In this document: piece by piece, positions 1-55,841 of the stretch
Position numbering within the stretch: the first letter of the stretch is position 1
Layout: each line of letters opens with the position of its first letter
Origin: Candidatus Daviesbacteria bacterium
GTDB lineage: Bacteria; Patescibacteriota; Microgenomatia; Daviesbacterales; UBA10151
DNA: 64,000 nt
Assembly: GCA_016432425.1 (NCBI GenBank)
Contig: CP066688.1
Span: 84,368-148,367 of the forward strand
Direction: 5' to 3'
Position numbers and translations under genes: made by a program
The notes under the pieces: generated by a model
Told to the model about the DNA's origin: nothing
What the model saw: only the letters and a program-made list of their open reading frames with translations
The model's database searches: none

Positions 1-2328
1 AATACTTAAGTTATGTCCCTGCTCATTTTTCTCTATAGCAAACTCACCAGCTCCCACCTGTTTAAACTCTGCTTGGCCTTCAAAATCTCCACCTTTAATT
101 AAATTTTTATTATCCAACTGAATACTCAGCCTATGTTTACCGGAAGTTAAATTAATATTTTTAAAATAAACATAAGTATCTGTGACTCGATCTATCTCCC
201 AAGAAGATGGTACTCCATCAAGTTCCAGACTAATCTTTTTCCCCAATTCATAGTTTATCCCAAACTCTTCCAGATGATATCTTTCCAGAATGGGCATATA
301 GACACTTCCATTTTGAATTTCAAATTCAAAGTGGACTTTTGATAAATCATATACAGCAAAACGATCTTTCAGGTTAGACGGTGCACTATTAAATTGATCT
401 AGTGAGGAAAGTTGAGAATTATTTGCTAAAATTAGATCTTCGGTTAAATCCAAAATCTTAGGAATTGATCTAACTTGGTTGTCATCAGGATTTATTAAAA
501 TACTTTTTTCATCCAAAACACCTATAAATTTTTCCCCATTTTTATAAGGATACCCAAAAAACAACTTGTCAGCAGAATAAACTTTGGGCAAAATATCCGC
601 TTGAGGAAACTTATAAAAATACCAATCTCCAAAATGTGAAAGTAGTGATTGCGTAGCTCCATCAGATAGTTTGGGCGATAGACTTTGCTGATCTTTTTTC
701 TCAAAGATCATCCCGATATTTAGTTTAGCTGACAAATTTTTTGCTAAATCTATCTGATTTTTTTTTAAGCTTAAATTAAATTCTTTAACCAATCTGGCAA
801 TAGGCGCATCCGGAGTATTAAGGGAAGAATAAAGAAGTTGTTGGTCGCTCAAGAGGGATAGAATCGATTCTATCCCTCTATAACCCCATTTAAAATTTTC
901 TATTTCATCATCAGGATAGATTATTATTCGACCATTATTTTGATTGTCCAGCCATTGCTTTGCTGAAAAAACATATTGTGGAAACTCAACATAAAAACTA
1001 TCATTTCTTCCTGGTCTAAATATTTTACCTGTTATAAGCGGGTAAGAGTAAATTAAATTAGCCAAAATAAGAACTGACACCGAAACAGGAACCAAAATCT
1101 TTAAAAGAGAAAGTCTTTTAATATTAACTTTACTCAAGTTATAAAAAAAGAGAGAAATTAAACCAGCATAGGAAATTATCACCAATGGTGTAAAGATATA
1201 CCAAGGGCTTCTAAATATTGAAAAGAAAGGTACTCTATTTACCAATTCTCTATAAAAAGTACCCGTTGGCAGATGTGTACCTGCCCCTAAAAAAGATCCC
1301 ACTGCTATCATTATGGCAAAGGCTATATAGTAGTGTTTATTTTTCTTATCAAAAATTAAAAAAGAAATAAAAGCAAGAAAAGGTATCAAAAAGCTAAATA
1401 TAATAAAAGGAATTTTATAAAAATAATTTAGAGCATAGGGAATATACAAAGGAGTATTAGTTACTTCATCAAAAGTATACCAGTCCCACGCACCCTGTAA
1501 TCTTAGTACGTTTAAAAGGCTGGTATTTTCTGAGAGGCTGTCTATCCAGTTGGTAAATCCTAATTTATCTATACTTCCAATAGGAGAAATGTTTCCCAGG
1601 AAAAATAACGCAGTAGGCAAAATCCAAAATAAATTAATCGTAAAAACTAACCCACCAATTAGAAAAAAATTCCGCAACCCATTAATAAATGCCGCCTTAC
1701 TTCTTTCGCTTAAAATCTGGCCTATTAAATAAATAAAAATTGCCAGATAAAACGTAAAAAAATATGATGGATTTATCCCCGCACCCGATAGTATTATACC
1801 TGTTAAGCTAGAGAGGATCACAACATTCGGTAAAGTGATTTTTCCCATCTTTAGAAGAGTTAACAATCCCAGCCCGAGCGGCAAAGCAGCAATCAAGGAT
1901 AAATTGGAAACTTTAACATTCTCCCAAGTATTAAAAAGATAGGTATTGAAAGCGTATAAAGTAACAAACAATAGTTGGATTAATCTATTACCTGGCAAAA
2001 TTAACCTGGCAAAAAAATAAGCCGATAAGCAAATCAGGGTAAACCAAAAAACTAAACTGGTAATTTCAACTAATTGTAAATTAAAACCTAATTTGTAAGG
2101 GATAGCCTGTATTAAATGAAAAAAAATCCCAGCGGTAGAAGAGGAAAAATCTGATCCGGCATTCAATAGATCGTTCCAAACAAACAGTCTTCTGATAAAC
2201 CATAGACCGGGATCAAGAGGAAAATTAGTATCAACACCATTTATTAAAACGTTTCCTTTACCAAAAAACCAAATTAGGGGAGTAAGCCCCAAAATAGCTA
2301 GTGGAAGGAATTCAATTAATTTTTTCAT
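1..2328 (-). CDS. Large polytopic GT-C-type membrane glycosyltransferase, AftD/DUF3367-like N-terminus. Partial: the start codon is at 2328 and the reading frame is open to position 1, so the C-terminus lies outside the window.
   Basis: I translated the minus-strand frame by hand (MKKLIEFLPLAILGLTPLIWFFGKGNVLINGVDTNFPLDPGLWFIRRLFVWNDLLNAGSDF...) and spot-checked it at seven points along 1..2328 with no stop. It is absent from the ORF track because no stop falls inside the window. The D-T-x-F-x-L-DP...F..R....W motif resembles the AftD/DUF3367 N-terminus. It has many TM helices followed by a beta-rich C-terminal part. Confidence 0.6.
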   Translation of the reverse strand, partial: MKKLIEFLPLAILGLTPLIWFFGKGNVLINGVDTNFPLDPGLWFIRRLFVWNDLLNAGSDFSSSTAGIFFHLIQAIPYKLGFNLQLVEITSLVFWFTLICLSAYFFARLILPGNRLIQLLFVTLYAFNTYLFNTWENVKVSNLSLIAALPLGLGLLTLLKMGKITLPNVVILSSLTGIILSGAGINPSYFFTFYLAIFIYLIGQILSERSKAAFINGLRNFFLIGGLVFTINLFWILPTALFFLGNISPIGSIDKLGFTNWIDSLSENTSLLNVLRLQGAWDWYTFDEVTNTPLYIPYALNYFYKIPFIIFSFLIPFLAFISFLIFDKKNKHYYIAFAIMIAVGSFLGAGTHLPTGTFYRELVNRVPFFSIFRSPWYIFTPLVIISYAGLISLFFYNLSKVNIKRLSLLKILVPVSVSVLILANLIYSYPLITGKIFRPGRNDSFYVEFPQYVFSAKQWLDNQNNGRIIIYPDDEIENFKWGYRGIESILSLLSDQQLLYSSLNTPDAPIARLVKEFNLSLKKNQIDLAKNLSAKLNIGMIFEKKDQQSLSPKLSDGATQSLLSHFGDWYFYKFPQADILPKVYSADKLFFGYPYKNGEKFIGVLDEKSILINPDDNQVRSIPKILDLTEDLILANNSQLSSLDQFNSAPSNLKDRFAVYDLSKVHFEFEIQNGSVYMPILERYHLEEFGINYELGKKISLELDGVPSSWEIDRVTDTYVYFKNINLTSGKHRLSIQLDNKNLIKGGDFEGQAEFKQVGAGEFAIEKNEQGHNLSI
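852..879. repeat. 28-bp perfect palindrome agagggatagaatc|gattctatccctct inside the coding sequence of the AftD-like gene
   Basis: Read directly from the sequence. The two 14-nt arms are exact reverse complements with no spacer. It encodes RGIESILS. Confidence 0.85.
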
Positions 2329-4402
2329 ATATTTTTAACTCACTTATAACCCAAGGGGCAAACTGATGATATCCAATTTGGTCAATACGTAAAAATCTGG
2401 CCAAAATATGTGGTAAGTATATCTCAACCACCCCGTTTTGCAAAGGCGGACGTCTTTTATCCCAAAAAACTTCCTGCCAATTTTTACTGTCCAGAGAAGT
2501 TTCTATTTTATAACCCACCTCATTTTGATCTTTATTCTCAAAAGAGTCGACAGTAATTTCTGAAATTTGTACATTTTTCCCTAAATCAATAGTAAAATAT
2601 TGTGGTTTAAAATAAGGTGTTTGAGAATTCCAGTAAGTTTCTCTTTGACCGTCAATAGCTAATCTTGTCTCTTGTTGATTGTAAGAGGCAGCAGAAATCA
2701 CCGACGATAAATCCGTTTCTCTTTTTTTGTCAAAAATACCGGTAATCTCACCCCTTACTCTACCAGTTATGTTAACAATTTTTTTTTGGGTGGAATCATA
2801 GGAAATTCCATATACTGATTCTATGGGTAAATTATTTTTAGTTAGTGTTTTTACCAGATTATCTAAATTCCAAAAGAAACCAAAACCTAAATTATCATAT
2901 TTTTGATAACCTTCATCTTTAATATCCCACAGAAACTCATTGGTAAAAAAAGGAGGAGGAATTTTCTGCGACTGTCTGTAATTGACTAGAAGCGTCTGCC
3001 CTAACCCTGATTGGAAAGGTAATATCCGATCTGTTAAACCATAAAAAGGCTTATCAGATTCGGCAAAAATGACAGTCTCATCTTCTAAGTGCGAAATAAC
3101 AGTTTTAATTTGGGACAAAATATTTTGGCGTTCATGGCCTTCTATAACCAGCCCATTAATAGTTTCCTGAAGTAACAATAGATGGGCTAAAGTTAACAAA
3201 ATTAGTAAAATAACAACTGCGAATTTTAAATATTTAGCATCTTTAAAAGAGCCAACTAAAGCTACTAAAATCATGCTCATCCCCAAAGTAGCAGGATATA
3301 AGTATCTGGAGTCTAGCAGTAAAGACTTATTTACTACCGGCAGTAAAGGAATCGATGTAAAAAAAATTATTAGCCATCCTATTATGGCTAAATCTTTTAA
3401 AAGAAGGTTTCCTTCATTACTTTTTATTTCCGAAGGAAAGAGGGTTCCCCTCATTCTTAAGAGAAGCAATCCGCTTAAGATAAGTAAAATAAAAATGGAT
3501 GTAAAAATTATAATTTGGTCATCAGAAATATTAATATAATATCCTGAATATTTGGTCATTGAATCAGAAATATCAGAAGATTTATCTGTTAATTTAACAT
3601 ACACATTTAACGGTAAAAGGGTTTGGGCAAATAACTGTGGGGGGATGGATAATTGATTATATATTATTCTATCAATGATATTTCTATTTCCAGACACTAC
3701 AGCAGATTGATTATGGACACTAAAAAATCCAAATGACAATCTTAAGATAAAATAAAATCCTAGTATAATAAAAATAGAAAATAATAATTTTCTTTTTTCT
3801 TTTACTTTTGCCATAATTATTAGAGTTATTAAAACCAAAACAAATGTAAAGGCAGTTTCTTTAAAAAGAAAACTTAAAAAGATAGTAAGTAAACTCCATA
3901 TAAAAAATTTAAATTTCCTTTTTTGTCGGTAAAGTACATAAAAAGTAAGCGAGACTATACCAAATAAGGCGGCTCCTTGGGTACCTTCAAAAGTACCCAG
4001 CCAAGTTACTGCCTGGTGATGGCTGCTATTTACCAAAAAAAAGATTGCTGCAAGACTTGCCAGATATTTCTTTGTAGTAAGTAAATAAATTAAACTGTAA
4101 AGAACAATACCGGTTAAAAAATGAAGTAAGATGCTGACATAAAAATAATACTGAGCATTTAAACCTACTATTTTATAAATAATCATTTTGACAGTAAGTG
4201 ATAAAGGAGTAAAATGGCCAAGTTCCCCTCCAGGAAAAACGTTTCTTAAGAAATCGATAGGGGTGAGGGAGTTTAAATAAATATAATGGCCGAAGCTATG
4301 CCATTCATCTTGTTCAAAATAAGCCCATGGCAAATCTTTAAAAACAATAAAAGTAACTACAGCTATCAGCAGAATTGGCCAATATTTTTTGCAGATTTTC
4401 AT
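2312..4402 (-). CDS. GT-C (PMT/ArnT-like) membrane glycosyltransferase with C-terminal F5/8 type C (discoidin) domain
   Basis: 696 aa with about 10 TM helices. Loop-1 acidic motif YFEQDEWHSFGHYIY, compare the PMT motif FDEVHFG. The C-terminus has ...QYFTIDLGKNVQISEITVD...YKIETSLDSKNWQEV..., which matches the discoidin fold. Confidence 0.7.
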   Translation of the reverse strand: MKICKKYWPILLIAVVTFIVFKDLPWAYFEQDEWHSFGHYIYLNSLTPIDFLRNVFPGGELGHFTPLSLTVKMIIYKIVGLNAQYYFYVSILLHFLTGIVLYSLIYLLTTKKYLASLAAIFFLVNSSHHQAVTWLGTFEGTQGAALFGIVSLTFYVLYRQKRKFKFFIWSLLTIFLSFLFKETAFTFVLVLITLIIMAKVKEKRKLLFSIFIILGFYFILRLSFGFFSVHNQSAVVSGNRNIIDRIIYNQLSIPPQLFAQTLLPLNVYVKLTDKSSDISDSMTKYSGYYINISDDQIIIFTSIFILLILSGLLLLRMRGTLFPSEIKSNEGNLLLKDLAIIGWLIIFFTSIPLLPVVNKSLLLDSRYLYPATLGMSMILVALVGSFKDAKYLKFAVVILLILLTLAHLLLLQETINGLVIEGHERQNILSQIKTVISHLEDETVIFAESDKPFYGLTDRILPFQSGLGQTLLVNYRQSQKIPPPFFTNEFLWDIKDEGYQKYDNLGFGFFWNLDNLVKTLTKNNLPIESVYGISYDSTQKKIVNITGRVRGEITGIFDKKRETDLSSVISAASYNQQETRLAIDGQRETYWNSQTPYFKPQYFTIDLGKNVQISEITVDSFENKDQNEVGYKIETSLDSKNWQEVFWDKRRPPLQNGVVEIYLPHILARFLRIDQIGYHQFAPWVISELKIYEKIN

Positions 4403-5103
4403 TTCTGTGCCATTACCATGGCATATGATGCATGCAGATAATCAATTCCTGAAAAAAAATCAGATATAGGAGAAAATAAGGGATAGAAACCTATACCTTT
4501 TTTATAAATAATCTTAAATCTGTAGTTTCTTAAAAGTTGAATAAGGGATTTAAAAGTCATCACATTTATATGCGGATCCATTGGCAAAGTATGCTGATAA
4601 AATTTAGCAGAGGGACGATGCCCAATGGGATATACTTTACTCAAATATGGGCCTGTATATGGTTGATTACCTAAAATTAAAGCCATGATATTGTGGTAGG
4701 CAGCTAAATTTTCTGTAGAAATAATAATTTTCCCGCCCTTTTTTAAGACTCTTTGACTTTCGGAAAAAAAATTATCTAAATTCACCAAATGTTCCACTAC
4801 TTCTGTAGCAGTGATACAGTCAACACTACTATCTCCAAGAGGCCATCTTTCATTTAAATCAGAATTATAGACTTTTATCCCTTTTTCCCTAGCAAGATTA
4901 GCTCTTTCAGAAATATTCTCGAATCCTAAAATTTCATTAGTACTAATAATTTTAGCTCGACTGATAGTCTTTGAACCATTATCACAACCACAATCAAGAT
5001 ATGTTAAATTTTTACCTCTAGGTAAAAATTCTGCCACATGTTTTTCAATATCATCTTCTATTTTAGACGCTAAAAATTTTATATAACTTTGTATAAAACC
5101 CAT
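4399..5103 (-). CDS. Class I SAM-dependent methyltransferase
   Basis: Motif I LDCGCDNG and motif post-II VDCITATEVVEHL. I chose the start at the M of MGFIQSYIKF, giving a TAATG stop/start overlap with the upstream GT2 gene. The longer ORF start at 5181 would overlap the upstream gene by 79 nt. Confidence 0.8.
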   Translation of the reverse strand: MGFIQSYIKFLASKIEDDIEKHVAEFLPRGKNLTYLDCGCDNGSKTISRAKIISTNEILGFENISERANLAREKGIKVYNSDLNERWPLGDSSVDCITATEVVEHLVNLDNFFSESQRVLKKGGKIIISTENLAAYHNIMALILGNQPYTGPYLSKVYPIGHRPSAKFYQHTLPMDPHINVMTFKSLIQLLRNYRFKIIYKKGIGFYPLFSPISDFFSGIDYLHASYAMVMAQK

Positions 5104-6041
5104 TATATAAATTTCCTCTTCAGGAAAACTATTCCATAAGTCATAACTGAGATAAATGACATCAAAGGATGCAGCAACCAAGCTTTATTTCTGGTTTCTA
5201 AATAACCTATTAACCCTTCAATCAAAGGGCCAATAAAAGTTACGCAATAAATAATACTATAAACAAACTTTATTGGCGAAACCCCCTCTAACCAGGTACG
5301 TTTTTTTTCTTCCTTTCTGTTTAAAAACTTGTTGCCAATTTTAAGTCTTTTAGAAATAAAATCTCCCAAGGATGAGATATGGTCATGATAAATGCCATAC
5401 CCGGGGACCCGGGCAAACTTGCGAAACCCTTTTTCCATGGCAAAAAAAGAAAAATTTGATTCTTCAAATTTAGGTTTATATAACCCCACCCCTTCTATCA
5501 CTTTTTTATTCCACAAAAAACCATTAGCGCCTAAAGGATAAACTGAACCCTGAGGAATAGTATATTCAATATAGCCATTTTTATTTCTTTGCCTTAGGTT
5601 AGCAGCCAAACATCTGGAGAAGGGATCGGCAATATGAATTAACATGGAATAAGCATTAAAAATATTGTCATGTTCCCGGGGGAAATACAAAGATTCCACC
5701 CCAAATAAATCCGGATCTTTTAAAAAGGGTTTGACCATGACAGTCAACCAATCTTTTTTGATAATTTCATTATCAGCATCCAACAATACTATCACTTCCC
5801 CTTGAGAATGAATAATCCCCAAAGACTTAGCACTTTCCGGATCTCTTTGGGGATTATCAATCACCTTGGCCCCAAAATCTTTGGCTACCTTTCTGGTTTC
5901 ATCTTCTGACCTACCATCCACTACAAATATTTCCACCAGATTCTTGGGATAATTTTGCTTTTTAATGCTTGCTAAACAAATTGGCAGTTGTTTGGCGGCA
6001 TTATAAGTGGGGATGATAAAACTAACTCTAGAATTTTTCAT
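5103..6041 (-). CDS. GT2 family glycosyltransferase with C-terminal TM segments
   Basis: SFIIPTYNAAKQLPICLASIKKQNYP...VVDGRSEDETR...LLDADN (GT-A fold with a DxD motif). Confidence 0.8.
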   Translation of the reverse strand: MKNSRVSFIIPTYNAAKQLPICLASIKKQNYPKNLVEIFVVDGRSEDETRKVAKDFGAKVIDNPQRDPESAKSLGIIHSQGEVIVLLDADNEIIKKDWLTVMVKPFLKDPDLFGVESLYFPREHDNIFNAYSMLIHIADPFSRCLAANLRQRNKNGYIEYTIPQGSVYPLGANGFLWNKKVIEGVGLYKPKFEESNFSFFAMEKGFRKFARVPGYGIYHDHISSLGDFISKRLKIGNKFLNRKEEKKRTWLEGVSPIKFVYSIIYCVTFIGPLIEGLIGYLETRNKAWLLHPLMSFISVMTYGIVFLKRKFI

Positions 6042-8731
6042 TAATTTTCTTTGAACTCCTTAATCACTCCTGATTTTTGCGCTTCTTCCAGACTAATATT
6101 TCTGGCTTCGGCTAAATCTATTTCCAGTTTAAGCGGCCCCACAGGACCGTCCACAGTAATGTTACTTATTTTCAATCCAACTGGCTTCAATATTACACTA
6201 AATGGAGAAAAAACACTAAGTTCATTTACCGGGACTTTGGTGGTCACTGTCGTTTTATCAGTTATTACACTAACATTAAAGCGTAATAGCGGTGATATTT
6301 GCGAAAGTAAATTGTTCATTTCCAACTCATTTTGAATATTGGCGAAAGGATTCTCCAGAAAATTCAAAGCTGCATTTATATCAACATCGCTGAAACTAGA
6401 ATCAACTACTTCAAATTCCGAAATAGCCGGAGCATCATTGGATAAAGTGCCGGCAATATCCATTCTGACAAATCTAGCTGGGGTACTATCAAAACGATCC
6501 TCTACCCACTCCCCATCTTTTTTCTCCCCCCCTCTTACTTCTTTAACAACTTTCCAACTCTGCCCATCTGGAGAAGCCAATATTGTATAAACTGTGGGAG
6601 TTAGTGTATGGTTCCAATTCATCCATAAAACTCGATTAACATTTTTGACTTCACCTAAATCTATAGTTAATTGTTCTTTTTGATGATCATGCCAGTAAAT
6701 CCGATGACCTCTCCAACTACTTTCTAAGTTATTATCAGCTAAATTGACTTTCTCTTGAAATTTCCATTCTGACAGCGTGTCTACTTTAACATTGGCATAA
6801 TATTTTAATTTCGACAGAAGATAGGCAATCATTTGTAATTTTTCTGATTGAGAAAAAGTGGCTGGACTATTTGTCAGATAGGGATATTTAATTTCCGGCA
6901 AAGGAGAAATCTTAGCTTTAAAGCTAAGATGTATTGGCGCTAGAGGCGATAGTGAATCGGTCAATAAGCTGGCAGAATTTTGGGAAGTTTGTTTCATCAG
7001 TAATATTTGTGCTGAGGACCCATGTTGAAAAAGTTGTCTTGACTTTTCACTAGTATCAACAAGACCTAAAGAAGCGCCATAGTAAAAAGTATAAAGCTGA
7101 TCTATTTTTGTTCTATCCTTGGCCAACTTTGACAACAGTTCCTCGTAATCTGTAACCATGGATAGATCATATCTATCCACTCCATAATAAATTGCTATTG
7201 CCGTAGTTTCCGGCATAGAGCCAACAGAGAAAAAATCCCGAAACTGGCTTTGGGATTTACTGTCACTGGCTATATCAAAATAAAATATAGAGTCTTTTGG
7301 AAAATTCGGCACTTGCATTTTTAAAGTCTCATAGAATTTTTGAGTAGGATGGCTTCTTTCTGTCACAAAAGTATGCTGGTATCTAAAACTGAGCAATGTG
7401 TTCATCAGTATAATTAAAAATATTGGAAGAAAAGGGACAAATGTATAATTTTTAAAAATCTTTTTCTCTTTTAAAATAAAAAAACTTAAATATGTTAGTG
7501 ACCCTAAAATAAGAGCATATCCAACAAAAGCGTAATATAGGTATCTATGTGTAGTGTCAAAAGTAGCTTCCGGATACTGAATAAAATATCCAAAAATCTG
7601 TGTAACAATAATGGATAACCCAAAAAATAATCCCAGCGACAGTAATTTAAAATTCCGCCATAAAGAGAAAGAAAGTATTAATACAAAAACAATAATATAC
7701 ATCCCTAAAGCGCCAGATAATAAATTTTCAGAATTTCTGTACCAATACAGGTTCTGATTGTAAAAGTATTTGTTTAACATAAAGCAGAAAAAAAATAATA
7801 ATAAGGCGATAAATTTCGTTATCTGCTTAAGACCGAAGAAATAATATATTAACCACGCTGATAGAGAAAAAAAGAAAAGAGTTAAATTTTGTATATTATT
7901 TGAGAATAAGTTAATTAGCCAATTTTGAAAGTTAGTGGGGAAAAAAACATTTCCTGCTGTTGCAAAAAGTGTAGAAAAAATTTCTATCTTCCCTTGTATT
8001 AATTGACTTTTTATACCAGAAAAAGCAGTGGCACCAACAGTTTCATTTTTAAGATAGTACATATAAAAAATTATCCAGAAGGGTATTTGTCTTAAGATAA
8101 ATTTAAAAAATTCGGAAATTTTAAAAGGAACTAATCTAAAAATTGCATCTAAAATTAGTACTAAAAAAATCAAACTATGGGAACGTATAAAAACAAAGTG
8201 TACAGAAATAAAAAATAGCAACAAGCTTAGTACAAAAAATTTAAATTGACCGCTTTTAAGAAATTTAACTAGGCTCCAAAGCATTAACACTGCTAAGCTA
8301 AGCCCTAAACTATTTTGCCAAGAATTAGAGATTTTAAACATGGAATGAGAACCAATGTACCCGGCAGCAAAAATCAGAGTAGAAAAAAATGCTATTTTTT
8401 TATTGTCGAAAAAATCCTTTGATAAAAAGTAGATACATACAACTGAAATAAAATAAAGTAATAATCCCACAAAAAAATATCCAAAAGGATTCAACCCAAA
8501 AAATTGATAAAAAGGAATAAACGGGGTGATAGTATATTTGTAAGGACCTTCCCCAAAGGGACCTAACCCATAACTTCCCGCAGGCTCTGCAATATGTTGC
8601 AATTTAAATATCACCGCAGCATCATCCTGCCAGAAATACATAAGTAGTGTCTGCCCATATGAAATTGATACAACCAGGATTATTAAAAAAATAGCCAGCT
8701 GTTTTTTATATTGTCCTATTGCAATTTTCAT
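6041..8731 (-). CDS. GT-C (PMT/ArnT-like) membrane glycosyltransferase with C-terminal F5/8 type C (discoidin) domain
   Basis: 896 aa. N-terminal loop FWQDDAAVIFKL, polytopic. Discoidin-like region ...LTIDLGEVKNVNRVLWMNWN...YTILASPDGQSWKVV.... Confidence 0.7.
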   Translation of the reverse strand: MKIAIGQYKKQLAIFLIILVVSISYGQTLLMYFWQDDAAVIFKLQHIAEPAGSYGLGPFGEGPYKYTITPFIPFYQFFGLNPFGYFFVGLLLYFISVVCIYFLSKDFFDNKKIAFFSTLIFAAGYIGSHSMFKISNSWQNSLGLSLAVLMLWSLVKFLKSGQFKFFVLSLLLFFISVHFVFIRSHSLIFLVLILDAIFRLVPFKISEFFKFILRQIPFWIIFYMYYLKNETVGATAFSGIKSQLIQGKIEIFSTLFATAGNVFFPTNFQNWLINLFSNNIQNLTLFFFSLSAWLIYYFFGLKQITKFIALLLFFFCFMLNKYFYNQNLYWYRNSENLLSGALGMYIIVFVLILSFSLWRNFKLLSLGLFFGLSIIVTQIFGYFIQYPEATFDTTHRYLYYAFVGYALILGSLTYLSFFILKEKKIFKNYTFVPFLPIFLIILMNTLLSFRYQHTFVTERSHPTQKFYETLKMQVPNFPKDSIFYFDIASDSKSQSQFRDFFSVGSMPETTAIAIYYGVDRYDLSMVTDYEELLSKLAKDRTKIDQLYTFYYGASLGLVDTSEKSRQLFQHGSSAQILLMKQTSQNSASLLTDSLSPLAPIHLSFKAKISPLPEIKYPYLTNSPATFSQSEKLQMIAYLLSKLKYYANVKVDTLSEWKFQEKVNLADNNLESSWRGHRIYWHDHQKEQLTIDLGEVKNVNRVLWMNWNHTLTPTVYTILASPDGQSWKVVKEVRGGEKKDGEWVEDRFDSTPARFVRMDIAGTLSNDAPAISEFEVVDSSFSDVDINAALNFLENPFANIQNELEMNNLLSQISPLLRFNVSVITDKTTVTTKVPVNELSVFSPFSVILKPVGLKISNITVDGPVGPLKLEIDLAEARNISLEEAQKSGVIKEFKEN

Positions 8732-8732
8732 T

Positions 8733-8749
8733 TAGTTTATTATAAACTA
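8733..8749. promoter_or_regulatory. 17-bp 8-1-8 palindrome TAGTTTAT-T-ATAAACTA in the 46-nt divergent promoter gap between the minus operon 1..8731 and the C-methyltransferase gene
   Basis: Read directly from the sequence. Confidence 0.25.
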
Positions 8750-8777
8750 CAAAATTGTTATTAGAATAACATAAATT

Positions 8778-10052: not shown

Positions 10053-10073
10053 ATTAAGGTAGACACTTATCAA

Positions 10074-10874: not shown

Positions 10875-10901
10875 TAGACTATTATAGCTACCATAAAAAT
10901 A

Positions 10902-17056: not shown

Positions 17057-17102
17057 CCATTTTTCTGTTTTTTATGATATGATACAATCGTGAATTAAGT
17101 CA
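17057..17102. promoter_or_regulatory. Divergent promoter region with TATAAT-like elements (tatgatatgatacaat)
   Basis: The only non-coding gap between the minus operon ending at 17056 and the plus operon starting at 17103. AT-rich with -10-like hexamers. Confidence 0.25.
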
Positions 17103-22204: not shown

Positions 22205-22225
22205 ATAATGATAGAATAATACACT

Positions 22226-25136: not shown

Positions 25137-25173
25137 GCAAAATATAACAACTTAAGCTATTATATTTTGTGGT

Positions 25174-26589
25174 ATGGATAAAAACAAGATAACCTTTATT
25201 ACCTTAATAATCGTTCTTATTTGGCATATATTCATTTTTTTAAAATTACCACATCTTACCTGGTTACCAGGTTTTCTTAATACGTGGTTTACTGATCAGG
25301 GGTTAATTTTATACAAAGACTTAGTCGATCCACATTTTCCTCTTTCTTATGTCATCATGTATCCATTCCTCAAAATTACTAATTGGCATTTTGAAACAGA
25401 TCCAATATTAGCACTGGCAGTAGCTCTTTCAAGCTGTTGGGGAATCTATTATTTTGGCAGGAAAATTTTATCCCCCTTATCAATTATGATTGCTCTTTTC
25501 TTCTTCTCTGTATTTTACTGGTATTTTTCAACTTGGGTGCAAATATCTCAGGAGGGAATACAGGGGTTATTGACTATCCCCTTAGTCTTTTTTTTACTTA
25601 AGCTGCCGCATAAATTAAACTCCACCTCGACCTTATTATTTGGAGTTTATATCATTATCTTAGGGCTTATGGGACAAATAATAACTCCCTTAATCATTAC
25701 AGCCTTAGCGATTTTTATATACTTTCACAGAAGCCATCTTGTTTCGTTAATTATAGGATTATCCATACCCATCGCTCTAATTTCATTATATTTTCTCTAT
25801 CAAGGTGCTTTTTACGACTTTTTCTTCTGGAATATACCTTATTATTTAACCTATGCAAACTTAAACCAAACCACTACTGGATCACTACCTTGGCTTGATA
25901 TACTGGCATTTTTCTTACCTGTGCTCCTACTTTTTATATTGCTCTTAACCAAAATTTCTAAGGTCCCTACTATTATATTGTTACTACTTTCCCTCTCCAC
26001 AGTTCCCATGATCATTTTTAGCGTCTTTCATCCGCATCATTTTCTGTTCGCATTACCCCTCCTCTCAATATCCGCTGGTTATGCTTTGCCTAAATTGATT
26101 AAAATATCTCACTTTAACTTATTAACCTTTATCATTACCATTTCAGTTGTTTTCTATATAACGACTTATACTATACCCTGGCTAACATCTAAATTTATAC
26201 CCGGATGGAATCCCAAAATTTTAACAGCCGAAAAAGATCCTAAACAACAAGAGGCAATTGATTGGCTAAAAATAAATACCGATCTCAATATTAAAATTTT
26301 AGTAGCAGGCGACCCTTTGTTTTATTTTAGAAGTGAACGGCTGCCTGCCAACAACCGGTTTACAGTATTACCCTGGCATTACTTACCCCTCGATCAAACC
26401 CAAAAAGTAATGGTAGAAAAACCGCCGATCTTTTGGGTAATAGATAAAAATTATAGGGAAAGGTTAATTTCCGGCTGGAAAACTCCTCAGATTGATGAGT
26501 TTATTAAAAACGAATTAATATGTTATAAAATGGTTTTTGAAAATTCTGAGTGGGAGATCTGGCAAAAAACTTGCTTAAAGGACAGTTAA
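25174..26589 (+). CDS. Polytopic membrane protein, putative GT-C-type glycosyltransferase. Paralog of 23667..25136.
   Basis: 471 aa with the same architecture and shared motifs as 23667..25136. Confidence 0.45.
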   Translation: MDKNKITFITLIIVLIWHIFIFLKLPHLTWLPGFLNTWFTDQGLILYKDLVDPHFPLSYVIMYPFLKITNWHFETDPILALAVALSSCWGIYYFGRKILSPLSIMIALFFFSVFYWYFSTWVQISQEGIQGLLTIPLVFFLLKLPHKLNSTSTLLFGVYIIILGLMGQIITPLIITALAIFIYFHRSHLVSLIIGLSIPIALISLYFLYQGAFYDFFFWNIPYYLTYANLNQTTTGSLPWLDILAFFLPVLLLFILLLTKISKVPTIILLLLSLSTVPMIIFSVFHPHHFLFALPLLSISAGYALPKLIKISHFNLLTFIITISVVFYITTYTIPWLTSKFIPGWNPKILTAEKDPKQQEAIDWLKINTDLNIKILVAGDPLFYFRSERLPANNRFTVLPWHYLPLDQTQKVMVEKPPIFWVIDKNYRERLISGWKTPQIDEFIKNELICYKMVFENSEWEIWQKTCLKDS

Positions 26590-28599
26590 TTTCGCCACCG
26601 GATCTTTTAAAATACAGGCATTTTCATTATCTGCCACTACTCGAAGATATTTGCTACTTCGTCCGGCAAAATAAAAAACAAAATGGTTAGCGTCGAAGTT
26701 AATTTTTCTTCCAACTTGATCAGTGGGAATAGCATCTTTTTCTCGCTGCCAGTTTTGTCCGTCTTTTGAGGTTTCAATATAAGCTAATTTTAAATTTTGG
26801 CAATCTTTAGTTGAGCTATAATTTAGCTGCAACCTGGATAAAACTACTGCACTATCTAAAGATATCTCTAAAATATTACCTATAATATTTTGCGTGATTG
26901 GCCTTGAATAAGTTTTCTCTTCTGTGCGGAATTCTTCTTTGGTATGTGCTAAATCATTTTTCCAAATTTTTAACAGCGGGGCTCCATCTACTTTCACCTC
27001 ATATACTGGATCCAATAATTTATCAACATATTCCCAAGCATAATGGTATGCTCCCACATCATAGTTATATGTCATCTCCATAATATATTCTCCGCCTCGC
27101 TGTACTCCACTAAAGTGATAGTTAGAATAATTAATATCGGGACGAATTTTAAATAAAGGCAGATTAGAGGTAGTTCCTTGAATAAGGGTAAGTTTTGCCC
27201 CTGATGAGGCATTTTTATTAACCCATTCCAAACCCTCCACATAAACATTACCTAAACTATTCCCAGCTGAAGAGGTTCCTTTGGCAATAGCTCCAGATAA
27301 ACCACCTGTCAGAAAGTTAAAGTATGTATTCTGATAAGGATGAAATTTAATAAGCGGTAAGATCAAAAGATAACCAACAACCAGTAGTAAAATTGAAGCG
27401 GTAATTAACTTTAACTTTTTATCTGTCTTTAAAACATCTTGTATCAACCAATTTGCTCCTATCCCCCCTATCAAAGCCAGTGTCGGAATATATTCCATAA
27501 TTTGTCTGACACCTCCATAAATACTAAATCCTGAAAGCGATACTCGCAATATCGGAATTGTGAACCAGATTAAAATTAATGATAAAATTTTCCAATTATT
27601 AGTCCAAAGTTTGATAGAAGCAAACAGTCCAAAGATAAAAAATAATAACAGTACCGGAGGAGTGGTAAAAATAATCCATTGAAGCGGATAAAGGTTAAAC
27701 GAACCTACAAGATAGCTTGATTGGTAATTCGCCCCGCTCCCGACCTTTTCGTAATATTTAAAAGATTGTAAAGTATGAGAGATGGGGTCAGACCAAAGGT
27801 AAGGCCAAAAGATAAAGAAAATTAAAAACATGATAGGCAGAAAAAAAATTAAGCTAAGAGCGATTTTCTTTGATAAAAATGTATGAATAATTTCTTTTTT
27901 GTTTTTCCAATAATAGACAAAAAGCCAGAGAGTTAATATTAACATGGCAAAAAATATGTTAAATTTTATACCCAAAGCCACTCCGGCAAAAATAGCAGAC
28001 AATATTATCAAGACACTTTTTTTACTAGTGATTCCTTTCCAAAAAAGATAAACCGTTAAGGTAAAAAACGTGGTTTCTGCCGGATCCTTAATATTAAAGT
28101 GAGATTCTGCAAAAAATAATGGATACGTAGCCAAAAAAAGGCTGGCAAAAAACCCTGCTAATATCCCAAATTCGCAAGCTGCAATCCAAAAAATCATTCC
28201 CACTAAAATAGAGCTTGATATAATTTGAAATAGATGATAACTTTCTATATCACCTAAGAGTCCTAACTTTTGATAAAAAATTGTATTTAGGGTGGCAGAG
28301 GTTATATCCCCCAGCGGAGGGTGGCCGCGATCTTCCACCACTGGGTTCTTATTATTATAAAATTGGAATTGTTGATAAAAACTTCTGTCATGATAAGATG
28401 GATTAGTTTGAGCTTCTCGCAGGTTATACGATGTAATACCATTATAATCAAGTTTCCCAGTGAAATAATACCAAAGATAGGCTTGTCCTCTTCTTAAATG
28501 TTCCGGTTCGTCCCAGGAAATACCATAATCATGAATAGTTAGAAGTCCAACCCCAAAAAAGATAAAACCAACTATAACCGATAGAATGATTTTTTTCAT
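26575..28599 (-). CDS. GT-C (PMT_2/ArnT-like) membrane glycosyltransferase with C-terminal discoidin-like domain
   Basis: YGISWDEPEHLRRGQAY loop-1 DE motif. Conserved YGGVRQIMEYIP. The C-terminus has ...ETSKDGQNWQ...RSSKYLRVV.... Confidence 0.7.
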   Translation of the reverse strand: MKKIILSVIVGFIFFGVGLLTIHDYGISWDEPEHLRRGQAYLWYYFTGKLDYNGITSYNLREAQTNPSYHDRSFYQQFQFYNNKNPVVEDRGHPPLGDITSATLNTIFYQKLGLLGDIESYHLFQIISSSILVGMIFWIAACEFGILAGFFASLFLATYPLFFAESHFNIKDPAETTFFTLTVYLFWKGITSKKSVLIILSAIFAGVALGIKFNIFFAMLILTLWLFVYYWKNKKEIIHTFLSKKIALSLIFFLPIMFLIFFIFWPYLWSDPISHTLQSFKYYEKVGSGANYQSSYLVGSFNLYPLQWIIFTTPPVLLLFFIFGLFASIKLWTNNWKILSLILIWFTIPILRVSLSGFSIYGGVRQIMEYIPTLALIGGIGANWLIQDVLKTDKKLKLITASILLLVVGYLLILPLIKFHPYQNTYFNFLTGGLSGAIAKGTSSAGNSLGNVYVEGLEWVNKNASSGAKLTLIQGTTSNLPLFKIRPDINYSNYHFSGVQRGGEYIMEMTYNYDVGAYHYAWEYVDKLLDPVYEVKVDGAPLLKIWKNDLAHTKEEFRTEEKTYSRPITQNIIGNILEISLDSAVVLSRLQLNYSSTKDCQNLKLAYIETSKDGQNWQREKDAIPTDQVGRKINFDANHFVFYFAGRSSKYLRVVADNENACILKDPVAKLTVL

Positions 28600-28600
28600 T

Positions 28601-30289
28601 TCAAATATACTCTATTAAAGGCATACCGATAGTATCAAAAGAGCTTTCTTCTGCTACCGGAATTTCTATAAGGGAATTTTCCGGGATTTGATCTTTTACT
28701 TCAACCTTTTTGCCATCTCTTTTTATCTCTACTGCTGTCATTTTATTATTAATCCAGGCAAAATTGGTATTTTGATCATTCCAATAAAACTTAGGCAAAG
28801 ACCCTATTATTCCTTCTGTAGTAAAAGATGGCAATGTGTAGGTTTTAGTCTGAAACAAACTGGTGACTTCCCCATTTTCCAGATCAAATTGGTTAGCAGA
28901 GACGTCAACCACTAATTTATACAATTCAAATTCCCTGGGAGAGTTAACTTCTATATTTATTCCTTGGTCATTTTTAGAAATATCAACTTCTGACAAAGAC
29001 AAATCCTGACTATGAAGCGCCCCTTTTTCCCTCCAGAAACCTGTTACTTTGCTAAAACCCACCACCTTAAACCCATAGACAGACCTCGGCAGTTGTAAAT
29101 TTCTATTTCCTTTAAGATTGTACTCAATTTTTGCTCCTACCCAACCCTCGTGAGTAAATGCTTTGGCAGTTTTAAGAATATCTTCTAAATAGAATACCTG
29201 CCTGCTGCTGCTATCTGGCAAAAATAATCTTTGAGTGCCTAAATCAAACTTTCTATCAAAGAAGACCCAACCCGGATCTGCAGAAATTATCCCCCGCAAA
29301 CCATTTAATTTTGTCCCCAGAGTAATCCACTGCGTCTTGGTTGAAGTGGTAAACTTTTGAGAATGGGCAATTTTGTCTTTAAAATTTATTGATTGATAAA
29401 TGTATTCACCTGCCAGTTTATCAGCCAAAGCTGAAGGGTGAGGATCAACGGGGTTTAAAACTAAATTAGATTTGTTTTGATAAGTACTGAAAACATCAAA
29501 CAGATCCACTATTTGTACATTATATTTCTTTGCTAATTTTTTAATTTGCTCATGGTACTGTGGATATTTATACTGCTCGTTGGGATTAGATGGATTATAT
29601 TGCGGAAAAACAACAAGCATCAATTCCCCACCTTTTTCTTCAGTTAATTTTTTATTTTTTTTCAATAACTGTTCTGCTTTTTGTAAAGCTTTAGAATTAT
29701 CAGTATAAATACTTTTAATTTCTCTATCAGTCTCTCTGGCTACTCTAGCTCTTTCCAAGTTTCCAAAAGTTATTTGGTATAGTTTTAAATTTCTAATGAC
29801 TTCGTTTTTAATAAAATGGGGTGGAAATTCTTTACCGGCTAAATCTAAAATATTTATCCCGATTACTGTCAAATCCGGATTAAAAAGTACACCTTCGTTT
29901 TCAAATCTTTCAACTTCCGCTGCAAAATTAAATCCCGGTTTGGCCGCATTAATAACTTCAACTGCATCTGCCCCAAATTCCTGTTGTAGTTTTTTTTCTA
30001 ATACTTTAGGGAAAGACTGCGCAGGATTATCAATATACCAACCGTAAGTATACGAATCCCCTAATGTATAAATCCTATACGTCTCCGGCCGCTTTTGAAT
30101 AGTAAAATCTCTATCTCTGTAGCCGAATTTATTAAGATTAACTCCTTTTTCTAGCCAGCTTATATCATCTCTTTGATATTTTGGGTTAAGATAAGGTGGA
30201 TTCCAAAAAATTCTTAAAGTTACTTCAACCAGTAGGATAGTAAAAAAAATTGACGCAAAATTTAAGCCAACCTTACCAGAGATTTTCAT
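28601..30289 (-). CDS. SGNH/GDSL hydrolase family protein with N-terminal TM anchor and C-terminal beta-rich domain
   Basis: Block I YRIYTLGDSYTYGW. N-terminal hydrophobic helix. About 250 aa of beta-rich C-terminal domain. Confidence 0.7.
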   Translation of the reverse strand: MKISGKVGLNFASIFFTILLVEVTLRIFWNPPYLNPKYQRDDISWLEKGVNLNKFGYRDRDFTIQKRPETYRIYTLGDSYTYGWYIDNPAQSFPKVLEKKLQQEFGADAVEVINAAKPGFNFAAEVERFENEGVLFNPDLTVIGINILDLAGKEFPPHFIKNEVIRNLKLYQITFGNLERARVARETDREIKSIYTDNSKALQKAEQLLKKNKKLTEEKGGELMLVVFPQYNPSNPNEQYKYPQYHEQIKKLAKKYNVQIVDLFDVFSTYQNKSNLVLNPVDPHPSALADKLAGEYIYQSINFKDKIAHSQKFTTSTKTQWITLGTKLNGLRGIISADPGWVFFDRKFDLGTQRLFLPDSSSRQVFYLEDILKTAKAFTHEGWVGAKIEYNLKGNRNLQLPRSVYGFKVVGFSKVTGFWREKGALHSQDLSLSEVDISKNDQGINIEVNSPREFELYKLVVDVSANQFDLENGEVTSLFQTKTYTLPSFTTEGIIGSLPKFYWNDQNTNFAWINNKMTAVEIKRDGKKVEVKDQIPENSLIEIPVAEESSFDTIGMPLIEYI

Positions 30290-31059
30290 CTTGGATAACT
30301 TTTCTTTTTGCTTAAAGCGATATAACCAAATCCTAAATCAGTTTTTATAAACAAATCCATTATTTTAAACATGGGGTATAAAATTAATGGGCTGGTGACC
30401 AAAGATTTTAATCTGGGATCATACTCCTGCTGAATACTGCTTTCTTTAGTCTTAGCATCTTTACTTAAGTTCTTACTAAAAGATTTAATCAACCTGCCAG
30501 TCTTGGTTATTCTTCTTAAGATCCATAAAAAGGGGAAACCATAGCTCAAAATAGTCTCAACCAGAAATCCAGCTTTTTCCAGTTTTTCTTTTAATTCTTT
30601 TCTTTCGTACCTTCTAAAATGGCCTTTGATTTCATCCATCTTATCCCATTCTGACATGTGGGCTGGTATTGACATTAAAAAAGTTCCTCCCGGTTTTAAT
30701 AATTGATAGATTTTTTTCATAGCCAGCTGATCATTTTTTATATGTTCTAATGTTTCAAAACTAAAGATCACATCATATTTTTTATTAGATTTAAAGGTAA
30801 AAATATCAGCTTGTTTAATATTAATCCCCTTAGCCCCATTCAATTGACCTCGCGCTATCTTAACCGCCTCTTCTGAAATATCAATATAGTCTCCTTTAAA
30901 TCCCTGTTTCAGAAGATATTTAACAAATTCACCGTTTCCCGCCCCCACATCCAGAAAATAGCTATTTTTATCTAAAACTTGAGAAAATTTTTTATACAAA
31001 TAGTTTCTATATAAAAAGGTAGGGGTAGGTACCCACATAAATTTTTGGTCTCTTTTCAT
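30286..31059 (-). CDS. Class I SAM-dependent methyltransferase
   Basis: FLDVGAGNGEF...DVIFSFETLEHI...LKPGGTFLMS. Confidence 0.8.
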   Translation of the reverse strand: MKRDQKFMWVPTPTFLYRNYLYKKFSQVLDKNSYFLDVGAGNGEFVKYLLKQGFKGDYIDISEEAVKIARGQLNGAKGINIKQADIFTFKSNKKYDVIFSFETLEHIKNDQLAMKKIYQLLKPGGTFLMSIPAHMSEWDKMDEIKGHFRRYERKELKEKLEKAGFLVETILSYGFPFLWILRRITKTGRLIKSFSKNLSKDAKTKESSIQQEYDPRLKSLVTSPLILYPMFKIMDLFIKTDLGFGYIALSKKKSYPR

Positions 31060-31062
31060 AAT

Positions 31063-33180
31063 TTATTTTGTTTCCTTAACATCTGGCAAACTAAATACTT
31101 TTAAACTTTGTATATTAAACAAACAGGCATCAGACGGAGACAATTTTAGTCTAATATACCTAGCTCTTTCCCCTAAAAATGAATAGACAAATCTGCCATC
31201 CTTTGGTTGCTCACCGTACACCGCAATTTGACCGGTGGGCAATTTATCTCCCAGTTCTATCTCCTTGCTACCATCTAAAGAAATACTGACCACACCATAT
31301 TTTAAATCCTGGCAATTTACCAGATCGTAAGCGGAGCTTGAAATTCTCGTTATACTCGAATTATAAAAAGCTTCCAAATAGGATAAAGCAGCCGGTATCT
31401 TGAGGTCAATATCTATCATCCCGTTTAATCTTTTAACTGACACATCTTCTATTAGTTTTTGATTTTTAAATCCCTCTTTTGTATGCGCTGTATCGTTTTC
31501 CCAGATTTTTAAAATTGCTACTCCATCTACTTGTGTCTCATATACAGGATTAACTTGTTGTTCTAAATATTTATCATAATATGAACGGTTAATGACCCCA
31601 TCATAAGTCAAAGTCATGGCATAATCCCCTCTTCTTAAGGGGCCGCTTCTTCTGGAGTTATGAAATAATATATCGGGACGGACCCAAATTAAGGGAATAT
31701 TCGGCATTAGTTCATAGACAAAATCTGCTTCGGCATTTGGTGGCGCATTTTTATTAAGCCAGACTACTCCCTGTCTGTAAGCCGAACCAAAACTATTACC
31801 CCACGAAGGAATTTGTTTTTCCTTGGCCCCAGATAAACCTCCTGTTAAAAAATTAAAATAAACATTTTCATTGGGATGAATTTGAACCAACCTAATAACT
31901 ACTGGGATAAAGGCCAAAAGTATTAAGATACTAATTACCTTCTTATACCGCCATCGTGTTAAAAAAGAAGCGCCCAGCCCAGAAAGTATGGCTAGAGCCG
32001 GAATATATTCCATAATTTGCCTAACACCACCATAAATAGTAGCACCGGGCCAAATTACCCGCAGGATTGGTACTAACAACCATAACAATATTAAAAGAGA
32101 AACCTTATCTTTTTCCGATTTTATTTTAATCAAGGCAAAAATAAAACCAATCAGCGATAAAAGTAAAGTTAAAGGGGGAGTGGTAGATATTATCCATAGA
32201 AGCGGGTAAGTATTCGCTCCTAAAGGTCCTAAGAAATCACGGTTGACATTAACTGTTAAACCAATAGTTTTATAAAAATTAAAAACCCTCCATAAACCAT
32301 ATTCAAAATCCTGCCAAAGATAAGGCCAAGTTGCCAGAAAAATGACAAAACCCACAAGAGGAACTAAAAATAACGAAATCACAAACCGCCTATTAGAAGA
32401 AATCTTCAAAAAAGCATTAATTTTGTTTAAAATATTTTTTTTATATTCTATTGATTTACCAAGCGCCAATACCAAAAACCAAGGAGCAATAACTAAACTG
32501 GAAAATAGAATATTAAACTTGGTTCCAAGTCCTAAACCAAAAACTAATCCTGAAAATAAAATCCACTTTGCCTTTAAGATTTTAACCCCATACCAAATTA
32601 AAAAAAGAAACAACGACCAGTAAAAACTCTCCGGTATATCTTTTTCAGTGTTAAAGTGCATCTCCGAGAAAAAAAGCGGGTAGGTGATGAGTGAAAGTGC
32701 CGCCACAAAACCGGCAAATTTGCCATAAATTTTGCTAGTCCAAAAAAATACCAGTCCGACGAGCAATGAAGCTAGTAAAACTCCATAAACCCGGTAAGAA
32801 TCTACATCGTTAATTAAATGTAATTTTTGAAAAAGAATTAAATTAAATCCGGCACTTAAAATATCGCTAATGGGCGGGTGTCCATCTCCATCGATTTTCA
32901 TATAAGTCTCAAAAGTGACAGAATCATTCTGGTAATAACTTCTTTTAGTTATATCGGAGATATCTTTGTCTGCATCAATCCTTAGAGTCTCTGGATTTTG
33001 GTAATACTTTTGAAAAGAAGGCAGATCATTATAATCTTTTCTACCTGTTAAAAAATAATGCAGATAAGCTTGTCCTCTGGGTAAATGATTAATGGTATCC
33101 CAATTAATTCCATAATGAGGTAAGGTAACTAAACCCAATATAAAAACAAAAAGACAAATTAGTAGTGTTAATTTTTTCAC
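31063..33180 (-). CDS. GT-C (PMT_2-like) membrane glycosyltransferase, paralog of 26575..28599, with the loop-1 DE motif changed to DT
   Basis: YGINWDTINHLPRGQAY versus YGISWDEPEHLRRGQAY in the paralog. Conserved YGGVRQIMEYIP. Beta-rich C-terminal domain. Confidence 0.65.
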   Translation of the reverse strand: MKKLTLLICLFVFILGLVTLPHYGINWDTINHLPRGQAYLHYFLTGRKDYNDLPSFQKYYQNPETLRIDADKDISDITKRSYYQNDSVTFETYMKIDGDGHPPISDILSAGFNLILFQKLHLINDVDSYRVYGVLLASLLVGLVFFWTSKIYGKFAGFVAALSLITYPLFFSEMHFNTEKDIPESFYWSLFLFLIWYGVKILKAKWILFSGLVFGLGLGTKFNILFSSLVIAPWFLVLALGKSIEYKKNILNKINAFLKISSNRRFVISLFLVPLVGFVIFLATWPYLWQDFEYGLWRVFNFYKTIGLTVNVNRDFLGPLGANTYPLLWIISTTPPLTLLLSLIGFIFALIKIKSEKDKVSLLILLWLLVPILRVIWPGATIYGGVRQIMEYIPALAILSGLGASFLTRWRYKKVISILILLAFIPVVIRLVQIHPNENVYFNFLTGGLSGAKEKQIPSWGNSFGSAYRQGVVWLNKNAPPNAEADFVYELMPNIPLIWVRPDILFHNSRRSGPLRRGDYAMTLTYDGVINRSYYDKYLEQQVNPVYETQVDGVAILKIWENDTAHTKEGFKNQKLIEDVSVKRLNGMIDIDLKIPAALSYLEAFYNSSITRISSSAYDLVNCQDLKYGVVSISLDGSKEIELGDKLPTGQIAVYGEQPKDGRFVYSFLGERARYIRLKLSPSDACLFNIQSLKVFSLPDVKETK

Positions 33181-55825: not shown

Positions 55826-55841
55826 TATCTAATTGTACAAA

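Follow-up and report, generated by a model that had tools for sequence, protein, structure and literature searches.

Membrane glycosyltransferases of the GT-C type assemble the envelope glycans of mycobacteria, archaea and eukaryotes, and how these enzymes select their acceptors is poorly understood. Some of the closest described systems carry a carbohydrate-binding module (CBM) appended to the membrane enzyme. Acceptor arabinan is the ligand of the EmbC and AftD CBMs, and mutating the CBM of EmbC lowers both the amount and the length of its product (summarized in PMC11127046). The C-terminal CBM of ORF12, a GT136 enzyme, binds the unmodified acceptor O-polysaccharide (PMC11127046), and the electron cryomicroscopy study of AftD compared the calcium-binding CBMs of that enzyme with 4A45, a CBM32 (Tan et al. 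2020). A GT-C enzyme with an appended CBM is a design already established by AftD, EmbC and GT136, and a CBM32-like module is already present in AftD. Here we describe a 64,000-nucleotide stretch of DNA (the window) from Candidatus Daviesbacteria, an uncultured groundwater member of the Microgenomates in the candidate phyla radiation (CPR), in which five GT-C-type membrane proteins are predicted to end in C-terminal tails of the discoidin type (F5/8 type C, or CBM32). A sequence-only reading of the window had proposed that GT-C enzymes are fused here to discoidin-type beta-sandwiches, and our analysis supports this. We consider it fairly probable that the five enzymes, which belong to a surface-glycan cluster, use their discoidin tails for acceptor tethering.

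Discoidin-type tails on five membrane proteins

The five proteins are referred to by the letters B, C, E, H and J. They and their tails are encoded at the following positions, with lengths in amino acids (aa):

2312..4402, minus strand: B, 696 aa, a membrane protein resembling GT-C enzymes that has an alpha/beta domain and ends in a discoidin domain
2348..2689, minus strand: discoidin/CBM32-type domain of B, residues 572-685 (PF00754, 57.3 bits, E value 2e-15; PF22633, 48.2 bits)
6041..8731, minus strand: C, 896 aa, with a GT-C-like transmembrane domain, an alpha/beta domain, a discoidin domain and an extra C-terminal beta-sandwich
6416..6754, minus strand: discoidin/CBM32-type domain of C, residues 660-772 (PF00754, 49.9 bits, E value 5e-13)
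19760..22243, minus strand: E, a paralog of C with a degenerate discoidin domain (827 aa from GTG 22243, or 814 aa from ATG 22204)
20099..20431, minus strand: degenerate discoidin domain of E, residues 605-715 (PF00754, 18.3 bits, E value 0.003, below threshold)
26575..28599, minus strand: H, a 674-aa GT-C enzyme of the GT39/PMT_2 type (PMT_2, 32.2 bits) with an abbreviated discoidin tail
26578..26874, minus strand: abbreviated discoidin-type tail of H, approximately residues 576-674 (PF00754, 14.2 bits, E value 0.05; 18.5 bits for the isolated tail)
31063..33180, minus strand: J, a 705-aa paralog of H (GT39/PMT_2; PMT_2, 30.1 bits) with the same tail plus an insertion
31066..31443, minus strand: divergent discoidin-type tail of J, approximately residues 580-705, placed by homology to the tail of H

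All five open reading frames (ORFs) named in the sequence-only reading are present on the minus strand at the positions given there, except that the mechanical ORF of the third, E, begins at GTG 22243 and not at 22204. This longest ORF overlaps the divergent YdjC-like gene at 22226..23104. Because ATG 22204, the 14th codon, avoids the overlap, it is the more plausible start.

The evidence is strongest for B and C, which pass the PF00754 (F5_F8_type_C) gathering score of 28.2 bits; E, H and J individually fall below it or yield no match. When searched against the PDB using phmmer, the tail of B matched the CBM32 modules 4lks, 2j1a and 2j7m, and the tails of both B and C matched CBM32 modules of Clostridium perfringens hydrolases as well as YeCBM32. 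Both domains are complete and keep the canonical CBM32 motifs (DG/DN..T/S.W, IDLG, SxDGxxW, ARFxR and ISE.E). The discoidin signature quoted in the sequence-only reading, QYFTIDLG..ISEITVD..YKIETSLDSKNWQ, is found literally in B.

Structural superposition on CBM32 was made for C alone of the five tails. The AlphaFold model of C, built on 34 homologs, has a predicted local distance difference test score (pLDDT) of 90.1 and a predicted template modeling score (pTM) of 0.83. Foldseek placed residues ~650-778 of this model on CBM32 structures, with 4a44, 2v72, 4zz5 and 2j1e as the top matches (target template modeling scores 0.73-0.82, root mean square deviations 2.2-2.8 Å). The sequence-only reading had set exactly this kind of superposition as a check, and the tail of C fits, in keeping with an eight-stranded beta-sandwich jelly roll. 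Almost all of the 67 C homologs carry PF00754. Beyond the discoidin domain, members of the C family continue through two helices into a second small beta-sandwich (residues ~785-896, strands at 817-878, pLDDT ~90).

The domain of E is shorter than the family consensus and has lost the tryptophan of SxDGxxW. It keeps the D/W/R/W columns that are invariant in the C family, and it matches the NCBIfam model NADase_discoid (23.5 bits, E value 5e-5), with a trace match to CBM_AftD (E value 0.07). E is a paralog of C over the full length; the two match each other by blastp (6.5e-23 and 1.8e-12), and their tails align over 438 residues (E value 1e-18).

The tails of H and J are more divergent. The C-terminal module of the H family is ~115 aa long and contains two nearly invariant cysteines, C600 and C662; the conservation of this pair in the tails of H and J fits a position outside the cytoplasm. 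Matches to PF00754 at an E value of 1 or better were found in 20 of 28 H-family tails (best 2.4e-7), and no other family competed, with only stray single matches elsewhere. When the H-tail profile was searched against the PDB, the significant matches were all discoidin/CBM32 chains; the H sequence alone found nothing in the PDB. Profile-profile alignment using hhalign matched the H tail to the B and C discoidin profiles at 96.5% and 96.4% (E value 1e-9), compared with 97.7% for B against C, and E values among the three tail profiles ranged from 1e-9 to 2e-12. The J tail has no Pfam match of its own and is placed only through H, with which it aligns at 7.6e-53 by blastp. Alignment of the H/J domain starts only at the xIDLG strand (Pfam positions 36-114 of 127), and the DG..T.W segment at the N terminus is missing. 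The H/J module is a shortened domain of the discoidin type, not a textbook one.

Collectively, these results place E, H and J in the discoidin superfamily, an assignment made by family-level profiles and not by a curated threshold. The sequence-only reading had described clear discoidin signatures in all five proteins. This description holds for B and C, and the other three had to be placed through their families.

Probable GT-C character of the membrane halves

Each of the five proteins begins with a polytopic half, whose last hydrophobic segment ends at approximately residue 400-450, and continues as a soluble tail of 250-450 aa. In the C model, ~13 long helices lie between residues 9 and 473. 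The hydropathy boundary falls at ~400-450 in B, C, H and J, as well as in a further membrane protein of the window, D (10902..13106); in B, the transmembrane half ends at approximately residue 412.

Curated GT-C profiles were matched above threshold by H and J (PMT_2), by D (PMT and PMT_2) and by an AftD-type protein, A (1..2328, partial; GT-C_AftD). NCBI names H a "glycosyltransferase family 39 protein," and we found 492 homologs of it. No curated Pfam or NCBIfam model matched the membrane half of B, C or E. Their relatives do provide a connection, with 10 of 30 B-family members matching PMT_2 (best E value 3e-10) and one C-family member having a precomputed PF13231 match. In hhalign, the N-terminal halves of B and C scored 99.1% against each other, and that of B scored 88% against the PMT-positive D family (E value 3e-6), with QDEW of B falling on HPDEG of D.

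An acidic motif after the first transmembrane helix (TM1) is the GT-C catalytic signature, as in ArnT, PMT and PglB. An acidic pair at this position is invariant in the families of B (within Q31-D32-E33-W34, all invariant), C (D36-D37) and D (D40-E41). In the H family, W29 and D30 are invariant and E31 is nearly so. Sequence searches of the PDB with the B-family and A-family profiles found no GT-C chain, and the H-family profile gave weak matches to ArnT and TMEM260. Taken together, the assignment of the B, C and E membrane halves to GT-C is well supported but not proven.

Two lineages of discoidin-tailed enzymes

Full-length profiles of the B and C families align over 624 columns (hhalign, 99.9%, E value 6e-34), spanning the transmembrane, alpha/beta and discoidin domains. 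This alignment shows that B, C and E form one superfamily with a common architecture, to which C and E, relative to B, have added an insertion and an additional C-terminal beta-sandwich. H and J are likewise paralogs, with 38% identity over their full length (E value 1e-133). Within the B family, ~30 clusters of ~555 aa terminate exactly ahead of the discoidin position, so the discoidin unit is a separable addition in this lineage and has been gained or lost at least once.

Five independent fusions were considered and rejected, since B, C and E are homologous throughout their transmembrane, alpha/beta and discoidin domains and H and J are paralogs. The superfamily relationship of the first three and the paralogy of the other two instead leave two lineages, B/C/E and H/J, with duplication and modular loss or gain. 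The five tails then have at most two origins. The "recurrent fusion" of the sequence-only reading overstated their independence.

The same gene families lie side by side in another groundwater contig and also occur in Woesebacteria, Blackburnbacteria and other Microgenomates. This distribution makes the arrangement a trait of the Microgenomates clade. In NCBI, B and C already carry the name "discoidin domain-containing protein," and the description of the locus as unusual needs tempering on both counts.

The tails of D and A

Two further proteins had been counted in the sequence-only reading as the sixth and seventh enzymes of the series, with analogous beta-rich tails:

10902..13106, minus strand: D, a 734-aa GT-C enzyme (PMT, 34.4 bits; PMT_2, 29.5 bits) with a tail resembling CBM4/9/16/22
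10977..11483, minus strand: beta jelly roll of D, approximately residues 542-710 (tail model from 24 homologs, pLDDT 89.2, pTM 0.90)
1..2328, minus strand: A, the N-terminal 776 aa of a 1020-aa AftD-type GT-C enzyme, cut by the window edge (GT-C_AftD, PF11847, 33.1 bits)

Neither tail is discoidin. In hhalign, the D profile and both the A sequence and the A profile scored below 2% against the three discoidin profiles, and discoidin was rejected for both. What stood of the claim is the analogy for D, whose tail is confidently modeled as an alpha/beta subdomain plus a beta jelly roll. Foldseek matched the jelly roll to CBM22 (2wys), CBM16 (2zex), CBM4 (1gu3), a porphyran CBM (8xmz), the Eph ligand-binding domain and CBM-like domains of tailspikes. 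These matches are moderate (E values ~1e-4, target template modeling scores 0.5-0.64, root mean square deviations 5-8 Å). The Pfam model CBM_4_9 was matched by 2 of 24 D homologs and not by D itself. The tail is conserved among 2,384 relatives of D at E values of 1e-3 or better. On the basis of the model, the D tail is predicted to be lectin-like, analogous to the discoidin tails but of another family.

The A tail gave no discoidin signal, and A and 13 homologs had no match to PF24607 (CBM_AftD); 1 of 14 A homologs matches CBM_4_9 (1.5e-5). The full-length protein (1020 aa, positions 12075-15137 of a sister contig) ends in a C-terminal transmembrane helix, like AftD. Close homologs of A (36-57% identity) occur on nine contigs titled "uncultured Gammaproteobacteria bacterium" and on one other contig titled Woesearchaeota archaeon. 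The nearest named relatives of the nine contigs are Woesebacteria, Daviesbacteria and Patescibacteria, and their "Gammaproteobacteria" titles look mislabeled.

Genomic context

The window is a single large glycan-assembly locus in which nearly every ORF has a role in glycan biosynthesis. Three of its proteins are each 100% identical to an NCBI entry from a metagenome-assembled genome of Candidatus Daviesbacteria. Its base composition is uniform, with 30-39% G+C and no compositional break, and no tRNA genes were found in it; together, these properties give nothing that would suggest a mobile island. At least 13 GT-C-type membrane glycosyltransferases are encoded within the 64 kb, and the total of GT-C-like genes may reach 17. 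The inventory further includes many GT2 and GT4 enzymes, a YdjC protein, a polysaccharide deacetylase, a Wzx-like flippase and two nucleoside diphosphate (NDP)-sugar dehydratases/epimerases. At least nine S-adenosylmethionine (SAM)-dependent methyltransferases, one of them an NDP-sugar C-methyltransferase, are interleaved with the glycosyltransferases, and their number suggests that the product may be a heavily methylated glycan:

4399..5181, 13094..13810, 14528..15205, 18965..19786 and 23101..23694: SAM-dependent methyltransferases
30286..31059, 36269..37027, 44571..45434 (identified by eye only) and 8778..10052: further SAM-dependent methyltransferases

Two adjacent genes bear on the supply of donors:

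17103..18041, plus strand: GT2 enzyme of the ArnC/GtrB/PgfS type (NCBIfam ArnC, 184 bits, near full length; PgfS, 137 bits; Glycos_transf_2, 116 bits)
18038..18964, plus strand: second GT2 enzyme of the ArnC/GtrB/PgfS type (NCBIfam PgfS, 212 bits, and ArnC, 156 bits, both full length)

Both NCBIfam models cover GtrB-type enzymes, which load sugars onto undecaprenyl phosphate and typically have a C-terminal pair of transmembrane helices. The sequences of both products show this pair, seen in that of 17103..18041 as two C-terminal hydrophobic helices. Both enzymes are putative polyprenyl-phosphate-sugar synthases that could supply lipid-linked donors.

The remaining membrane proteins and the hydrolase encoded between H and J are as follows:

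52525..60737, minus strand: five tandem GT-C paralogs of the PMT_2 type, 535-555 aa, with 30-39% mutual identity and no discoidin tail
23667..25136, minus strand, and 25174..26589, plus strand: two divergently transcribed polytopic paralogs (blastp 1e-31 to each other) with no Pfam or NCBIfam match
28601..30289, minus strand: membrane-anchored SGNH/GDSL hydrolase between H and J (Lipase_GDSL_2, 56 bits; weak AlgX match)
39275..41302, plus strand: polytopic protein (PMT_2, 39 bits)
49481..50620, minus strand: polytopic protein with no match
62446..63654, minus strand: polytopic protein with a weak GT87 match (18 bits)

The genes at 52525..60737 were considered as short, discoidin-less relatives of B and rejected. 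The five make up a distinct family to which none of B, C, E, H, J and D belongs, and the short proteins of the B family match B alone. The product of 23667..25136 has a W-E-D motif directly after TM1, and this protein and its paralog may be further GT-C-like enzymes that existing models do not cover. The hydrolase at 28601..30289 has an uncharacterized C-terminal extension of ~260 aa and may act in the same pathway as an O-acetyl esterase or transferase on the glycan. On the sister contig (positions 15156..22091), the glycan locus runs on beyond window position 1; encoded there are a TMEM260_N/PMT_2 protein, a carbamoyltransferase (Carbam_trans_N/C) and another two large proteins with no Pfam match.

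Discussion

The domain identities, the homology relations and the gene context described above are direct observations, and we interpret them by analogy with characterized GT-C systems. Under the interpretation that we favor, cytoplasmic enzymes of the locus would make and modify nucleotide sugars, and the ArnC/PgfS-type GT2 enzymes would load them onto polyprenyl phosphate. Once the loaded lipid had been flipped, each GT-C enzyme would transfer its sugar at the outer face of the membrane, with catalysis via the acidic pair after TM1. The lectin-like tail would bind the acceptor glycan or glycoprotein and keep it near the active site. Such tethering would raise the local substrate concentration and give each paralog acceptor specificity, as for the CBMs of EmbC, AftD and GT136 ORF12. 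The presence of two full-length ArnC/PgfS-type GT2 genes fits the donor-supply arm of this three-component GT-C logic. By the same analogy, the tails are predicted to lie outside the cell, to bind carbohydrate and to tether the acceptor, and the donors to be linked to lipid. Acceptor-glycan recognition had already been suggested in the sequence-only reading, and it is a function demonstrated for the CBMs of EmbC, AftD and ORF12; processive polymer handling, the other suggestion made there, is putative.

Several points weigh against acceptor tethering. E, H and J are individually under the Pfam threshold. E has lost conserved discoidin residues, and its sugar binding may be gone; in H and J, the first third of the canonical domain is missing. 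Discoidin domains elsewhere bind phospholipid or protein, not sugar. The tail ligand and the identity of the acceptor both stay putative, and the CBM of GT136 ORF12 was dispensable for activity under the conditions tested (PMC11127046).

A more far-reaching version of this interpretation, which we regard as unlikely, would make B/C/E a Microgenomates-restricted GT-C family without a curated model, a candidate for a new CAZy glycosyltransferase family, with the CBM32 module as an integral and ancestral part. Together with H, J, D and A, these enzymes would form a combinatorial extracytoplasmic assembly line in which each tail reads the product of the previous step, so that a bacterium of minimal genome builds a complex, heavily methylated surface heteroglycan in ordered steps outside its cell.

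The tails might alternatively be structural or anchoring modules that hold phospholipid, an S-layer or cell-wall protein, or neighboring GT-C paralogs and so organize a multi-enzyme platform. The discoidin fold is known to bind phospholipid (the C domains of factors V and VIII, the C2 domain of lactadherin) and protein (APC10/DOC), and such chains were among the matches: pseutarin C and lactadherin for the H-tail profile, and APC10 in the Foldseek search with the C model. The retention of a degenerate domain in E, the truncation of the H/J domain and the dispensability of the ORF12 CBM for catalysis (PMC11127046) would also fit a structural role. However, B and C come closest to bacterial CBM32 modules that bind carbohydrate rather than to C2 or DOC domains, both proteins retain the canonical CBM32 motifs, and the GT-C-linked CBMs that have been tested experimentally bind glycans (PMC11127046). 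We therefore consider a structural role improbable as the main function of the tails.

Less probable again is a role in adhesion, in which the tails would recognize foreign host-cell glycans for attachment of a presumed episymbiont and the membrane domain would serve mainly as an anchor. CPR bacteria are widely described as epibionts, and typical CBM32 ligands, of the galactose, N-acetylgalactosamine and N-acetylglucosamine type, are common on cell surfaces. However, the invariant catalytic-type acidic pairs and other polar residues conserved over hundreds of homologs point to active enzymes, the genes lie within a biosynthetic locus with donor-making enzymes, and the tail, at 110-130 aa and with a short linker, is unable to extend far off the membrane. 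Finally, it is very unlikely that the E, H and J tails are unrelated beta-sandwiches that resemble discoidin by chance, leaving only two fusions: their individual Pfam scores are sub-threshold or absent and H alone has no PDB match, but the profile comparisons agree with one another and are specific (PF00754 in 20 of 28 H-family tails, PDB matches to discoidin/CBM32 chains only, hhalign E value 1e-9) and E aligns with C along its entire tail.

The locus offers a simple system for asking whether a lectin domain sets acceptor specificity or product length, as it contains a natural series of paralogs in which a compact PMT_2-type GT-C enzyme bears a single CBM32-like module, and has relatives without one. 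The locus also bears on how these episymbionts present themselves to hosts, with a CPR genome of ~0.8 Mb using at least 64 kb for the assembly of surface glycans. A density of at least 13 GT-C genes per 64 kb in a genome of less than 1 Mb is striking natural history. Within the library covered, literature searches returned nothing linking discoidin/CBM32 to GT-C beyond AftD, nor to CPR, and a search on CPR mannosyltransferases gave unrelated Saccharibacteria annotations only. New here are a compact PMT_2-type enzyme with one discoidin domain, the B/C/E family without a curated model, and the previously unrecognized H/J tail.

Comparison with known systems

In both sequence and structure, the tails of B and C are matched best by C. 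perfringens CBM32 modules such as 4A44, 2J1E, 2V72 and 4LKS, which are alike in motifs and fold. The modules differ in setting, being located on secreted, glycan-degrading glycoside hydrolases and not on membrane glycosyltransferases, and their identity to the tails is 17-26%. For the membrane domain, the counterparts are ArnT (GT83, 5EZM), PMT (GT39) and TMEM260: H, J and D match PMT_2/PMT, and an acidic motif follows TM1 in all of them. Unlike H and J, none of these carries a discoidin domain; PMTs have MIR domains, and TMTC and TMEM260 have TPR repeats.

EmbC, EmbA and EmbB (Alderwick et al. 2011) share the general plan, a GT-C enzyme with a C-terminal lectin-like CBM that binds the acceptor polysaccharide and affects the amount and length of the product. 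However, these enzymes belong to GT53 and carry a different CBM family, and no sequence relation to them was detected in our analysis. ORF12 of Citrobacter youngae (Kelly et al. 2024, PMC11127046) is a GT-C enzyme that works with a polyprenyl-phosphate-sugar synthase and a flippase and has a C-terminal beta-sandwich CBM; the ArnC/PgfS-type GT2 genes of the present locus fit this scheme. In contrast, the ORF12 CBM is described as immunoglobulin-like, and ORF12 decorates an O-antigen on its own instead of forming part of a battery of paralogs; in the window, no flippase of the GtrA type was identified.

The sequence-only reading had drawn its comparison with AftD, which is apt in light of the reference to the CBM32 4A45 in the AftD study. 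AftD is larger (~1400 aa) and has three CBMs, an extra beta-sandwich, additional C-terminal transmembrane helices and a bound acyl carrier protein, whereas B, C, E, H and J carry a single discoidin domain and mostly no C-terminal transmembrane helix. Their membrane domain is of the PMT_2 type, and its hhalign match to the A family is insignificant. As in the arrangement proposed here, AftD (PDB 6W98) is a GT-C membrane enzyme whose extracytoplasmic beta-sandwich CBMs bind the acceptor glycan; the C model matches 6W98 in Foldseek (E value 8e-6), and protein A matches the Pfam model GT-C_AftD.

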